The notes: generated by a model not told the origin, from the letters alone. A stretch of 64,000 nucleotides of DNA from an uncultured Candidatus Saccharibacteria bacterium (GCA_964594965.1 CAZQMX010000001.1:25667-89666); one strand, 5' to 3'. Positions 11,237 to 51,392 are shown, numbered from the stretch's first letter. Made by a program: numbers and translations.

Positions 11237-11471
11237 GGTTTTAGTAACAAAATCTTACCCCGTTGTATAACGGGGTAGTCAACTTTATTTAAACATGGTT
11301 AGACCAAGAAAAAGGCGATTAGGATAAATAAGAAATAGAGTTTGTCTAAAGCTCCGAAAATCAAATTTTTGAATCGCTTAGCCCTACCCTCGCTCTGCTC
11401 GGGCAGCGCGCCCACGCCTACTCTTCAAAAATTTATTTTCTGCGCTTTATATACAGGACATCTAGATTAAC

Positions 11472-18966: not shown

Positions 18967-19038
18967 GCCCATCTAGCTCAACGGTAGAGCAACGCTCTTG
19001 TAAAGCGTAGGTTGTCAGTTCGACTCTGACGATGGGCT
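18967..19038 (+). tRNA. tRNA-Thr (anticodon TGT)
   Basis: Manual cloverleaf: acceptor GCCCATC/GATGGGC, D arm GCTC/GAGC, anticodon loop CTTGTAA, T loop TTCGACT. Confidence 0.8.
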
Positions 19039-19119
19039 CTGGGAGTTCGGGTGGGTTCGCCCTGTCATCCGACAGGGCGCCCCGTCGAATGACGGGGCGA
19101 ATCCTCCCACTGGCTCCAG

Positions 19120-19201
19120 GGGCGGTTCGCATAGCGGCAATTGCTCGAGACTGTAAATCTCGCGTCTTCGGACTTCGCAGGTTCGAGTCCTGCACCGCCC
19201 A
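19120..19201 (+). tRNA. tRNA-Tyr (anticodon GTA), class II with a long variable arm
   Basis: Acceptor GGGCGGT/ACCGCCC, anticodon stem CGAGA/TCTCG with loop CTGTAAA, T loop TTCGAGT. Confidence 0.8.
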
Positions 19202-19267
19202 CGCGTTTTTTATCCAAAACTTGTTTTGGGTATAAAAAAGAGCGTCCCGTCGGATGACGGGACTCAC

Positions 19268-19523: not shown

Positions 19524-19868
19524 ATGACTCCAAACGAATATCAAAAACTTTGTAAAAAACCTGCCAAGAAATATCGCAATAAAGAAAAAGAGATAATGAC
19601 TTGGGGATTGGGCATTGCCGGAGAAGCCGGCGATGTCGCCGGATGTATTAAGAAAACCTATAGCCATGGTCGGGGCAGCGATGAAAAGAAAGGCACCAGA
19701 GAAAACCTTGGTGATACCTTCTGGTATATTGCCATGATTTGTAACTTTTACGGCTGGGACATGGAAAATATTATGAAGGAGAATATTAAGAAACTCCAAA
19801 AAAGACATCCCAAAGGATTCTCCTTAAAAGGATACGGGAAAGTGACAAGAAAAGATTGGAATGAATAA
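19524..19868 (+). CDS. MazG-like nucleoside-triphosphate pyrophosphohydrolase
   Basis: Small all-alpha NTP-PPase with an EAGE-type metal-binding motif (GIAGEAGD...E). Confidence 0.55.
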   Translation: MTPNEYQKLCKKPAKKYRNKEKEIMTWGLGIAGEAGDVAGCIKKTYSHGRGSDEKKGTRENLGDTFWYIAMICNFYGWDMENIMKENIKKLQKRHPKGFSLKGYGKVTRKDWNE

Positions 19869-20074: not shown

Positions 20075-21142
20075 ATGGCTGGTAAACGGAAGCGAAAAAA
20101 ATACACTATCCATTTTGATTGGATTAAAGCCAAGGAAGTTTTCCAAATTATAGCGTCGGAATGGAATAAAAGAGAGAAATCAGGTGTTTATTATGGATTG
20201 GTTCTACCGCAGGATAACTACATATCCTCAGGCCTATCCGAAAAAGAATTAGCCCTTTTCTTTTTTTATGCTGTTCTACCACAACGGGGTAGTATTGACA
20301 GTGAAAGCCCAATGAAAGTTTGGTGGCGTTTCAGAGAAAGAACGCCTGAAGCATTTGATCCCGCCGTAGCGGTAAGAGACTTTTCTCCAGAAACGATTTT
20401 ATTTGGATTAAGAAAGACCATTGGTATAGAAAAAACAAATAAACGCGGTTTTAAACTGGAAGAACTGTCGAGGTTCTGGATTTACAACTCAGCAGAACTT
20501 CTAAAATTCTGGGACGGTGATCCAAGAAATATTTTTTCTAAAGTTAAAGACTTCAAAGAGGCCTTTAAGAGAATCGAGCGTAAGGCAGGCAAAACAATGT
20601 TTAAGGGTATGGGCATGAAAGTTTTTGCCCTACTAACCATTTATTTACAGGAAAGAAATTTAATTCCAATTTTTCCTACACCCTTGCCGCCGGATTTTCA
20701 CACTTTAAGAATATTATGGACGACTGGGATAATAAGGAGGAGTGATTGGATCAAACCTTGTTCTGCGACCAAATATCGTCCAGAACAACTAATTGGCAAG
20801 CCAGCAATTAATGTTGGTCATGGCTTTACAGACATAGTTGCTCTTTGGTCTCAAGGATTTATGGAAAAAAACGGATTTTTTCCCCTGGATATGAATCCGG
20901 CTATCTGGTTCTTGGGCAGGAGATGTAGTAAAAATTTCCAAAATCGCTCAAGAAAAAAAGCCAGTCAATACGCTGATCTGGCTAAATTAAGAAGAAATCC
21001 GAATCTATGGCCCAAGAGTTATAAAGATCTGTGCGCCGCTTGCCCAATTGAGAGGTATTGCAAATGGGCGATTCCCTCAATTCCATATTGGAGGTGGGGA
21101 CTATTAGTTAAACTAGGAAGAGGGGTTCCTTATCAGAAATAG
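20075..21142 (+). CDS. hypothetical protein with a C-terminal Cys cluster (CAACPIERYC)
   Basis: 355 aa, somewhat GC-richer than its neighbours. A C-x2-C-x5-C motif resembles part of an Fe-S cluster loop. No confident family assignment. Confidence 0.3.
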   Translation: MAGKRKRKKYTIHFDWIKAKEVFQIIASEWNKREKSGVYYGLVLPQDNYISSGLSEKELALFFFYAVLPQRGSIDSESPMKVWWRFRERTPEAFDPAVAVRDFSPETILFGLRKTIGIEKTNKRGFKLEELSRFWIYNSAELLKFWDGDPRNIFSKVKDFKEAFKRIERKAGKTMFKGMGMKVFALLTIYLQERNLIPIFPTPLPPDFHTLRILWTTGIIRRSDWIKPCSATKYRPEQLIGKPAINVGHGFTDIVALWSQGFMEKNGFFPLDMNPAIWFLGRRCSKNFQNRSRKKASQYADLAKLRRNPNLWPKSYKDLCAACPIERYCKWAIPSIPYWRWGLLVKLGRGVPYQK

Positions 21143-22162: not shown

Positions 22163-22193
22163 AACACCCCGCAGTACTGCGGGGTGTTTTTTG
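22163..22193 (+). terminator. strong rho-independent terminator
   Basis: ACACCCCGCAGTACTGCGGGGTGT followed by TTTTTTG. Confidence 0.6.
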
Positions 22194-27064: not shown

Positions 27065-27559
27065 ATGGCAGAAGAAAACAAGAAGGAAGAAACTCCTAAA
27101 GAGGAGGCTCCTAAAAAAGAAGAGGCGCCAACACCTGAGAAAAAAGAAAAGGAAGTTCCCGCCCCGTCGGCGGACAAGGAGGTGCCAAAGAAATTCAAAG
27201 ACTTAGTCAAACAAATTGAAGAACTAAGTGTTTTGGAATTAGCCGAATTGGTTAAAGTTCTAGAGGATAAGTTTGGTGTCAGTGTCCCGCAGTACAGCGG
27301 GATTGCTCCGGCTGCCGGAGGCGCTCCAGCTGAAGGCGGAGAAGAAAAAAGCATCTTTGACATCGAGCTCAAAAGCTCTGGTGACCAGAAAATCAGTGTT
27401 ATTAAGGTGGTTAAAGAAATTACAGACCAAGGATTAAAAGAAGCTAAAGAAATTGTTGATAGCGCTCCGAAAGTTATCAAACAGGGCGTTAAAAAAGAAG
27501 AAGCCGAAGAAATCAAAAAGAAACTAGAAGAAGCCGGCGCAACAGTAGAATTAAAATAA
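27065..27559 (+). CDS. rplL: ribosomal protein L7/L12 with an E/K/P-rich N-terminal extension
   Basis: C-terminal domain KFGVSVP...[56 protein letters not shown]. Confidence 0.8.
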
Positions 27560-33967: not shown

Positions 33968-34039
33968 GGCCCTATCGTCTAGTGGTTAGGACGCCGCTTT
34001 CTCAAGGCGGTAACACGGGTTCGACTCCCGTTGGGGCTA
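33968..34039 (+). tRNA. tRNA-Glu (anticodon CTC)
   Basis: Acceptor GGCCCTA/TGGGGCT with G.U wobbles at both ends, D arm GTCT/GGAC, anticodon stem CCGCT/GGCGG with loop TTCTCAA, T loop TTCGACT. Confidence 0.7.
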
Positions 34040-34104
34040 CAAGCCTAGACGGGTTCGCCCCGTCGGATGACGGGACGGTAGTCCATCGAAAGGAGGTGAT
34101 AAAA

Positions 34105-51123: not shown

Positions 51124-51190
51124 GGGGTAAACAAAATTTATCAAGCTTCTGGCTTGATTTTTATTTGGAAAGAAGATATAATGTGTGTAT

Positions 51191-51264
51191 GCGCCGTTAG
51201 CTCAGTCCGGTAGAGCAACTCCCTTTTAAGGAGATGGTCGGGGGTTCGAATCCCTCACGGCGTA
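51191..51264 (+). tRNA. tRNA-Lys (anticodon TTT)
   Basis: Acceptor GCGCCGT/ACGGCGT, D arm GCTC/GAGC, anticodon stem CTCC/GGAG with loop CTTTTAA, T loop TTCGAAT. Confidence 0.8.
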
Positions 51265-51349
51265 CTGAAATTTATTACGGGTTCGCCCTGTCATCCGACG
51301 GGGCGCCCTATCGGATGATAGGGCGATTCCCTCTACCCCTACCATGATA

Positions 51350-51392
51350 AAAACCCGCTTGTCTGTTTTTCCAGACAGGCGGGTTTTTGTAT
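51350..51392 (+). terminator. strong rho-independent terminator
   Basis: CCCGCTTGTCTG-tttttc-CAGACAGGCGGG followed by TTTTTG. Confidence 0.6.

Follow-up and report, generated by a model that had tools for sequence, protein, structure and literature searches.

In a 64,000 nt stretch of DNA from an uncultured Candidatus Saccharibacteria bacterium (GCA_964594965.1 CAZQMX010000001.1:25667-89666; one strand, G+C content ~38%; hereafter the window), GC-rich hairpins follow four transfer RNA (tRNA) genes. An original prediction had read them as a tRNA 3'-trailer processing or termination signal or as a tRNA-associated repeat. Our analysis indicates that these trailers are probably copies, lacking an open reading frame (ORF), of a 51 nt double-hairpin element, here named P, which forms the junction or terminal repeat of small selfish elements that invade tRNA genes at the T-loop. 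In related genomes, mostly of Patescibacteria, P usually stands beside a gene for a small GIY-YIG nuclease; the window has no such gene, and its P copies are therefore ORF-less remnants. That the window features belong to the P family is very likely, and it is likely that they derive from a nuclease-driven mobile element rather than from a signal of the host.

The P family was defined in this analysis by a covariance model (R1), which was built from 38 P copies taken from other genomes. tRNA genes were called with ARAGORN and RNA families were assigned with Rfam 15. The copies in the window and their immediate surroundings are as follows:

18967..19039, + strand: tRNA-Thr(TGT), intact, no encoded CCA; its T-loop TTCGACT includes TCGA (ARAGORN; Rfam tRNA, 69.7 bits)
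19041..19053, + strand: T-arm-like stub (GGGAGTTCG GGTG) before the palindrome (sequence; similar stubs of T-stem 5' strand plus TTCG occur elsewhere)
19054..19104, + strand: complete P, 51 nt, with GGTTCG, hairpin 1 at 19060-19077 (loop ATCC), CG, hairpin 2 at 19080-19097 (loop GAAT) and CGAATCC (R1)
19105..19118, + strand: tRNA 3'-end-like tail TCCCACTGGCTCCA, with T-stem 3' strand, acceptor 3' strand, discriminator and CCA; Thr-like ending GGCT (sequence)
19120..19202, + strand: tRNA-Tyr(GTA), which begins 1-2 nt past the tail (ARAGORN; Rfam)
19243..19264, + strand: solitary half-element, CG plus hairpin TCCCGTC-GGAT-GACGGGA of the hairpin-2 type, T-loop flanks gone (R1, sequence)
33968..34040, + strand: tRNA-Glu(CTC), intact, T-loop TTCGACT (ARAGORN; Rfam)
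34050..34084, + strand: degenerate P, with CGGGTTCG, a single hairpin CCCCGTC-GGAT-GACGGG and then ACGGTAGTCC (R1, sequence)
51191..51265, + strand: tRNA-Lys(TTT), intact; promoter-like site upstream, at 51154-51182 (ARAGORN; Rfam)
51280..51330, + strand: complete P, 51 nt, with GGTTCG, hairpin 1 at 51286-51303 (loop ATCC), CG, hairpin 2 at 51306-51323 (loop GGAT) and CGATTCC (R1)
51331..51344, + strand: tRNA 3'-end-like tail CTCTACCCCTACCA with a CCA end (sequence)
51357..51384, + strand: intrinsic terminator with a 12 bp stem and a T-run, after the P copy; context outside the element (terminator scan)

The four trailer sequences quoted in the original prediction were all recovered from the window at their places, and the six tRNA genes agree with its description, none of them encoding CCA (ARAGORN). 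The hairpin pattern CCCYRTCNNNNGAYRGGG, with at most one mismatch, gave six matches in the window, where shuffles would predict 0.04. Of these matches five lie in the trailers, and the sixth, at 27162 inside a coding region, was read as chance. The covariance-model check that had been proposed was run, and R1 picked out the four trailer sites and nothing else significant in the 64 kb. The complete copies scored 80.9 bits (19054-19104, E 4.7e-19) and 75.2 bits (51280-51330, E 1.5e-17), the half-element 20.2 bits (19243-19262, model positions 25-44) and the degenerate copy at tRNA-Glu 24.5 bits (match 34018-34084). All four copies adjoin tRNAs as claimed, but the element is complete only at tRNA-Thr(TGT) and tRNA-Lys, and the Glu and Tyr sites are single-hairpin relics. 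The proposed spacing of 8-15 nt does not hold for tRNA-Tyr, where the hairpin begins 41 nt past the gene and 4 nt before tRNA-Thr(GGT). Of the six tRNA genes in the window, four carry a copy or a relic and tRNA-Trp and tRNA-Thr(GGT) carry neither.

Both complete copies begin 14 nt past their tRNA and are followed by tails shaped like a tRNA 3' end, which are 55% identical to the 3' ends of the neighbouring tRNA-Thr (19105..19118) and tRNA-Lys (51331..51344). The Lys-side tail matched no tRNA type, and with an identity of only 55% it is not a recent copy of tRNA-Lys. Both tails finish in CCA (19116-19118 and 51342-51344), yet CCA is encoded by none of the six tRNA genes; the tails are therefore old or imported rather than recent copies. 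At the position that matches the tail 19105..19118, other genomes hold a copy of the 3' end of the upstream tRNA, and the stub at 19041..19053 is, judged from its sequence, probably the leftover of an earlier or partial tRNA copy. The Thr-side P itself is identical (100%, 54 nt) to a P beside a GIY-YIG gene on an unrelated metagenome contig (L127:828-881). At the degenerate Glu copy, CGGGTTCG is identical to the T-stem 5' strand plus TTCG of tRNA-Glu itself, and the copy extends into the ribosome-binding site of the next gene. It has the form expected of a 20 nt slippage deletion between two CCCYGTC arms, and single-hairpin forms such as this one would be the product of slippage between repeated arms. 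A tblastn search of the window with two members of the nuclease family gave no hit below E 0.1, and the ORF-less form of P was also obtained in other genomes (L005, L048, L071 and L082). R1 found only the four sites in the window, and about 18 kb more of the same genome held neither a tRNA nor P, so that P occurs only beside tRNAs across ~82 kb of this genome.

P follows a strict plan: GGTTCG, an 18 nt hairpin with a 7 bp stem and the loop ATNC, CG, an inverse 18 nt hairpin with the loop GNAT, and CGAWTCC. Complete copies are all 51-52 nt long, hairpin 1 invariably carries the ATNC loop and hairpin 2 the GNAT loop, and CG links the two in 62 of 65 copies, which makes P one unit and not two random insertions. 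Its ends, GGTTCG and AATCC, are the two halves of a tRNA T-loop and together give the consensus T-arm sequence, so that P looks like 40 nt (hairpin-CG-hairpin-CG) placed within a T-loop with CG on either side. The "common core" GGGTTCG, for which a UUCG tetraloop had been suggested, proved to be the 5' half of this T-loop, with its partner CGAWTCC at the other end of the element. A UUCG tetraloop in GGGTTCGCCC was rejected because no compensatory changes occur in the outer helix GGTTCG/CGAATCC, the variable base of which tracks the neighbouring tRNA. Conservation within P is concentrated in the loops, the two adjoining pairs (TC/GA) and the outer CC/GG, and the middle three pairs vary. Across 38 copies the two-hairpin structure was 99% paired, with changes on both sides in 12 of the 14 hairpin pairs, a covariation that was reached by none of 500 shuffles. 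The pattern search by which copies were collected constrained only one hairpin per copy, and most of the variation falls in the other one. A single long hairpin in which hairpin 1 pairs with hairpin 2, which is the minimum-free-energy fold, was rejected, as its comparative counts were no better than those of shuffles.

In 65 distinct copies the hairpin pairs comprised 899 Watson-Crick, 7 G.T and 4 A.C pairs (98.8% Watson-Crick). An RNA would be expected to tolerate G-U pairs on the transcribed strand, and the near-perfect, strand-symmetric pairing therefore points to folded DNA or to copying that regenerates the arms. These counts point to selection on the hairpins at the level of DNA rather than RNA, or to a copying process that would rebuild one arm from the other.

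We regard it as very unlikely that P is a host RNA signal, a 3' trailer that guides processing by RNase Z or an exonuclease, stabilises the precursor or stops transcription, although several observations would suit such a role. The hairpins fold with very high stability (z about -6) and their stems covary. In the window P shares a transcript with the tRNA, as no terminator separates tRNA-Lys from P, and since tRNA-Tyr starts 1-2 nt after the tail the first copy sits inside a cluster of co-oriented tRNAs. However, G.T pairs on the sense strand are no commoner than A.C pairs, and the loops are not among the known stable RNA tetraloops. P is also present upstream of tRNAs, always inside the T-loops of dead tRNA fragments, and it travels together with the GIY-YIG nuclease gene. 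Two of the six window tRNAs have a complete copy, two have a relic only and two have none, and P is absent from a strain that is identical through tRNA-Lys. A terminator scan found no T-run after P on the + strand at any window copy. The canonical terminator after the Lys copy shows that P is not the terminator of the tRNA-Lys unit and, together with the gene's own promoter-like site, that P is not needed for tRNA-Lys either. Rfam 15 matched only the six tRNAs in the window and only tRNAs in 19 related loci. The reading of the trailers as a processing or termination signal is not supported on these grounds, while P may have an incidental influence on transcript processing or stability. The alternative offered with it, a tRNA-associated repeat, stands on firmer and wider ground than had been proposed, extending to many lineages of Patescibacteria and at least 17 anticodons.

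The strain comparison concerns the Lys-side copy. Contigs of other samples carry the same sequence as the window, and a look-up of the tRNA cluster returned identical sequences only. The Lys-side P is present in two contigs (L201 and L202) and absent from a strain of another sample (L203), which is identical to the window through tRNA-Lys and diverges 3 nt after that gene. This marks the 3' end of the tRNA in this genome as a recombination breakpoint at the level of strains. From L203:2195 onward, compared with the window from 51268 onward, ORFs of 169 aa and 55 aa replace a GreA-like gene.

The ORF beside P encodes a single-domain GIY-YIG nuclease of 83-98 aa (Pfam PF01541, E 5e-15), whose closest matches among solved structures are 1ywl (E 1.5e-7) and 1zg2 (E 4e-7), both UPF0213 proteins. 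Residues Y5, G17, R25, H29 and E61 were invariant in an alignment of 14 nuclease sequences. The family comprises at least 7,178 protein clusters at E<=1e-10, and the sources that name such clusters use generic terms ('GIY-YIG nuclease family protein', 'putative endonuclease'; a few 'excinuclease ABC subunit C' or 'hypothetical protein'). To avoid selecting loci by P itself, a second set of 80 metagenome loci was fetched through the nuclease protein alone. P (an R1 match at E<=1e-3) was detected within ~100 nt in 69 of these 80 loci. In 59 of them a tRNA lies on the same strand, no more than 60 nt ahead of the matched ORF stretch or 120 nt behind it and sometimes with no gap, and the tRNAs beside the nuclease-found loci represent at least 17 anticodons.

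Three arrangements recur: 5' fragment-P-ORF-tRNA, tRNA-ORF-P-3' fragment, and a combined form; complete units measure ~0.4-0.5 kb. Where P lies upstream, the 5' part of a tRNA ends exactly at TTCG and is followed by P, 10-25 nt, the ORF, at most ~30 nt and an intact copy of that tRNA. One locus (L194) holds positions 1-56 of tRNA-Gln (100% identical), P, 11 nt, an ORF of 84 aa at L194:1501-1751, tRNA-Gln, ATAAA and an identical P, and it continues with a 12 nt 3' fragment (100% identical), ATAAA and P again. Tandem arrays are formed by two units of [5' fragment, P, ORF] (L160), by two units of [ORF, P] (L059) and by [spacer, P, 3' fragment] (L005, L082 and L189). Within a locus the P copies were identical in five of six cases, though 37 copies overall comprised 29 distinct sequences. 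In many tRNA-ORF loci (L134, L151, L163, L184, L188, L127 and others) the ATG of the ORF lies 0-2 nt past the last base of the tRNA, and where the ORF precedes the tRNA its stop codon can fall within the first bases of the tRNA (L026). With such spacing, cleavage by RNase Z or RNase P would free a leaderless or tightly trimmed nuclease mRNA. In the tRNA-ORF-P arrangement the reading frame enters P, and the palindrome supplies the last codons, for example ...GVRPIIR (L013, L059, L065 and L045).

The sequence past P repeats the T-loop 3' half and the T-stem and acceptor 3' strands of the upstream tRNA, and even its genomic trailer. In 58 cases the 11 nt after CGAWTCC showed a mean identity of 72% to the 3' end of their own tRNA, against 36% in the comparison with tRNAs for other amino acids, and an identity of at least 80% was reached in 47% of cases versus 0.6% of controls. 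On the other side, in 10 of 22 cases the 5' flank of P reproduces positions 1 to G57 of the tRNA with 100% identity, and the variable base of CGAWTCC follows the T-loop of the neighbouring tRNA. The fragments carry the genomic trailer of the gene (CAA, CAT etc.), with CCA mainly where the gene has CCA, and the duplication is therefore derived from DNA. An RNA-mediated origin from copied mature tRNA with CCA was rejected because of these trailers. A hammerhead-like three-way junction and a split tRNA or intron were rejected too, as core motifs are missing and an intact tRNA is always adjacent.

With a degenerate pattern derived from P, a scan that took one genome per species gave at least 118 matching stretches. 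The low-GC matches among those listed were almost all from Patescibacteria, in many lineages (Saccharibacteria, Paceibacterales, Falkow-, Nealson-, Niyogi-, Taylor-, Staskawicz-, Magasanik- and Moranbacteria). A few metagenome-assembled genomes bear other labels, such as a contig of 59% GC called Kiritimatiellae, whose copy has GC-rich codons (L045). High-GC pattern matches had no tRNA gene nearby and were read as chance. In the low-GC loci P either follows a tRNA 3' end by a few to ~135 nt or precedes a tRNA by ~300-450 nt. An intact tRNA was located within 150 nt of P in 34 of 50 copies and 260-330 nt away in 11 more. P is undescribed in the literature searched, a search outside which most subscription-journal papers fall.

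In the T-loops the breakpoints fall at TTCG|AAT and are flanked by CG on either side. A dead copy of tRNA-Ser(CGA) contains, in its anticodon loop, a variant double hairpin with the loops ATAAA and TTTAT and the stems CCCCGAG and CCACGGG; this hairpin is placed at CTCG|AAA and likewise has CG on each side (L164/L181, ahead of the ORF; also L190, L167 and L195). As both sites are at TCGA with a CG repeat, they share TCGA as a common target with a 2 nt repeat. TCGA is present in the T-loops of all four window tRNAs that precede a copy or relic. Of the remaining two, tRNA-Thr(GGT) has the T-loop TTCAAGT and tRNA-Trp has TCGA. Among tRNAs within 330 nt of P, 82 of 102 (80%) had TCGA in the T-loop, and among tRNAs located elsewhere 53 of 83 (64%) did, an odds ratio of 2.3 (p 0.013). 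Immunity through T-loop mutations of resident tRNAs was rejected on this result, as tRNAs near P are enriched and not depleted for TCGA. T-loops that lack the near-universal T54-T55-C56 (TGCAAAT, TCCGATT, TGCAATT) were observed in several tRNAs of Patescibacteria (L047, L038, L067, L001, L134 and L138); such atypical T-loops occur both near and far from P and are not obviously escape variants.

Single hairpins were also observed in the D-loop and the anticodon stem of dead tRNA-Arg copies (L137/L142). Together with the variant in the anticodon loop, they would fit a separate miniature palindromic element (MITE/REP-like) that inserts at TCGA with CG duplication and accumulates in dead tRNA copies. 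The GIY-YIG gene would then be a mere neighbour, for example a freestanding homing endonuclease that creates the dead copies without mobilising P. ORF-less copies are common, as this explanation would have it, and the window contains a lone similar hairpin, CCCCGTT-GTAT-AACGGGG (11258-11275), in an intergenic spacer 22 nt past a stop codon and with no adjacent tRNA, which resembles variant hairpin units within P-like elements of L089 and L043. Nevertheless, we consider a separate element unlikely, given the 69 of 80 nuclease genes with P within ~100 nt, the tRNA or tRNA-fragment context of 45 of 50 P copies, the identity of the left and right P of one element, and the fixed loop order and 51 nt length, which favour one unit over random hairpin insertions.

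Duplicated tRNA 3' ends are also left by the integrases of many elements, which cross over in the T-loop. The breakpoint in the T-loop and the duplicated 3' end beside an intact tRNA are features that the units described here share with tRNA-targeting tyrosine-integrase elements, and the genome also has a tyrosine integrase gene, ~10 kb outside the window (L208). In contrast to such elements, the units here are ~0.4-0.5 kb long and hold only the GIY-YIG ORF and a tRNA, with no integrase, and 5' fragments are duplicated as often as 3' ones. Among 2.9 million viral contigs the P-derived pattern gave only two stretches, neither with tRNA genes (the one examined, L119, has 67% G+C), and both were read as chance matches. 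That the duplications are attachment-site scars of integrase-driven elements or prophages, with P as part of the attachment site, is accordingly extremely improbable.

An element of the REP/BIME type, mobilised by a RAYT (Y1 HUH) transposase, would likewise appear as paired inverted GC-rich hairpins after genes in an AT-rich genome. P resembles REP/BIME/REPIN-RAYT systems in its short inverted hairpin pairs, in ORF-less copies that outnumber the enzyme gene, and in loops and stem bases of the kind recognised by a protein, with covarying stem middles. However, the GTAG/CTAC tetranucleotide is absent from the alignment, the linked protein is GIY-YIG and not Y1, and P is tied strictly to the tRNA T-loop sequence and has few copies in each genome. 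Only four copies are present in the 64 kb window, all at tRNAs, with none in ~18 kb more, and the sequence of P is conserved across many Patescibacteria lineages, unlike that of species-specific REPs. We give this explanation hardly any credence.

We return to P as the repeat of a nuclease-driven element in tRNA genes. A complete element, as seen in related genomes, consists of the nuclease gene set against an intact tRNA and bounded by P copies that lie in the split T-loops of dead fragments of the same tRNA. The nuclease would break the TCGA of T-loop DNA with a 2 nt stagger, repair from the element-bearing copy would install the element plus a working tRNA, and P as folded DNA may be needed by the nuclease or by the repair reaction. 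This specific scheme of a cut at TCGA and repair is tentative, and we would not place it at even odds. Recombination between the duplicated tRNA segments could later delete the nuclease gene. A deletion between the two copies of positions 1-57 would remove the left P and the ORF and leave an intact tRNA, a short spacer, P and a tRNA 3' fragment, which is the form seen in the window; all architectures could be derived from the combined form by such recombination. P could act as a terminal repeat that is read as folded DNA, could block the recognition motif in the leftover fragment, or could be a separate parasite.

The closest precedent is the phage T4 enzyme SegB, a freestanding homing endonuclease of the GIY-YIG type encoded within the tRNA gene cluster, whose 27 bp recognition site (PMC2330249; PMC13096335) contains the T-arm motif GGTTCRANTCC and whose cuts leave 2 nt 3' overhangs (PMC2330249). 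SegB drives tandem amplification of tRNA-containing segments and has no tRNA isotype preference (PMC13096335). The elements described here plausibly work alike: their breakpoints fall in the same motif with a 2 nt (CG) repeat, many tRNA species are involved and tandem arrays are formed. SegB is a larger multidomain protein, whereas the nuclease here, at 83-98 aa, is essentially the catalytic domain alone and UPF0213-like, and its hosts are cellular genomes of Patescibacteria instead of a phage. The conserved palindrome and the fragments split at the T-loop have no counterpart in PMC2330249 and PMC13096335. A tblastn search of 50,697 phage records gave only distant GIY-YIG hits (<=41% identity), with no T4-like phage among 15 of the 22 records. 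By the sequence tests run, the nuclease family here is not related to SegB.

Several points weigh against a nuclease-driven element. Cleavage by any member of the family is inferred from sequence, and the protein is a bare catalytic domain without a DNA-binding domain, which leaves site specificity unexplained. The adjacent intact tRNA keeps a normal TCGA T-loop, often identical to that of the fragments, and should be cut too. Hairpin units stand elsewhere in dead tRNA copies as well, so that P could be a separate parasite. The first set of loci was gathered with a P-derived pattern. In the window, the tails are only 55% identical to the neighbouring tRNAs, and to call them fragments draws on position and family resemblance. 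Finally, the whole region downstream of tRNA-Lys is replaced in the strain without P, and this strain hence offers no clean empty site.

Among proteins of solved structure, UPF0213/YhbQ proteins (1ywl, EF2693; 1zg2, BH0048) are the best sequence match to the nuclease, with the same size and a single domain. They are probable bacterial relatives of the structure-specific nuclease domain of SLX1. To our knowledge, no genomic partner or target has been assigned to the UPF0213 proteins of known structure, and the linkage to a tRNA and P is specific to the family described here. Replacement of a cut target by an incoming copy is known from the mitochondrial atp6/orf360 of Allomyces, where a mobile endonuclease gene inserts and brings a replacement copy of part of its target gene. 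Both there and in the elements proposed here the target would be cut, the incoming DNA would restore a working copy and the displaced piece would stay behind as a pseudogene. Fungal mitochondrial DNA also has GC-rich double-hairpin elements and GC clusters, and small GC-rich double hairpins near such insertions in an AT-rich genome are a further likeness. Compared by description, the organellar systems differ in having protein-coding or rRNA targets and no known fixed 51 nt unit in a defined tetranucleotide. A more far-reaching reading, which we think doubtful, is that P and the ~88 aa GIY-YIG protein constitute a previously unrecognised minimal mobile element, in which an SLX1-like domain is given its specificity by folded DNA and which is a natural 'cleave-and-rescue' cassette. 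The nuclease would recognise the double-hairpin (T-shaped) repeat and the hairpin-prone T-arm and would cut TCGA. The resident tRNA gene would be destroyed and replaced by the element's own copy, and the host would be made dependent on the element.

Some other observations were made in the window. Hairpins with GTAY loops at 22167 and 41949 look like ordinary terminators. A MazG-like ORF (19524-19868) lies between rpmG and tRNA-Trp, and an ORF of 355 aa and unknown family (20075-21142) follows tRNA-Trp; in many bacteria secE-nusG stands at this place. Exact-protein look-ups showed that the L33 gene and a 129 aa ORF before tRNA-Glu are not on record.

For the window, the consequence is that the trailers count as relics, and neither RNA genes nor processing signals should be annotated there. 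If the proposed explanation is true, a single system of tRNA-gene parasites with a recognisable DNA signature extends across Patescibacteria. It would account for the GC-rich islands, tRNA pseudo-fragments and tandem arrays that surround tRNA genes in such reduced genomes, and also for some of the artefacts of assembly or annotation there. It would also provide a nuclease of 83-98 aa with an apparently defined target and a 51 nt DNA partner for biochemistry, and would extend the principle of SegB, a GIY-YIG enzyme that reads the universal T-arm motif, from phages to cellular genomes. Even symbiont genomes of ~1 Mb would then harbour active selfish elements that target essential genes.

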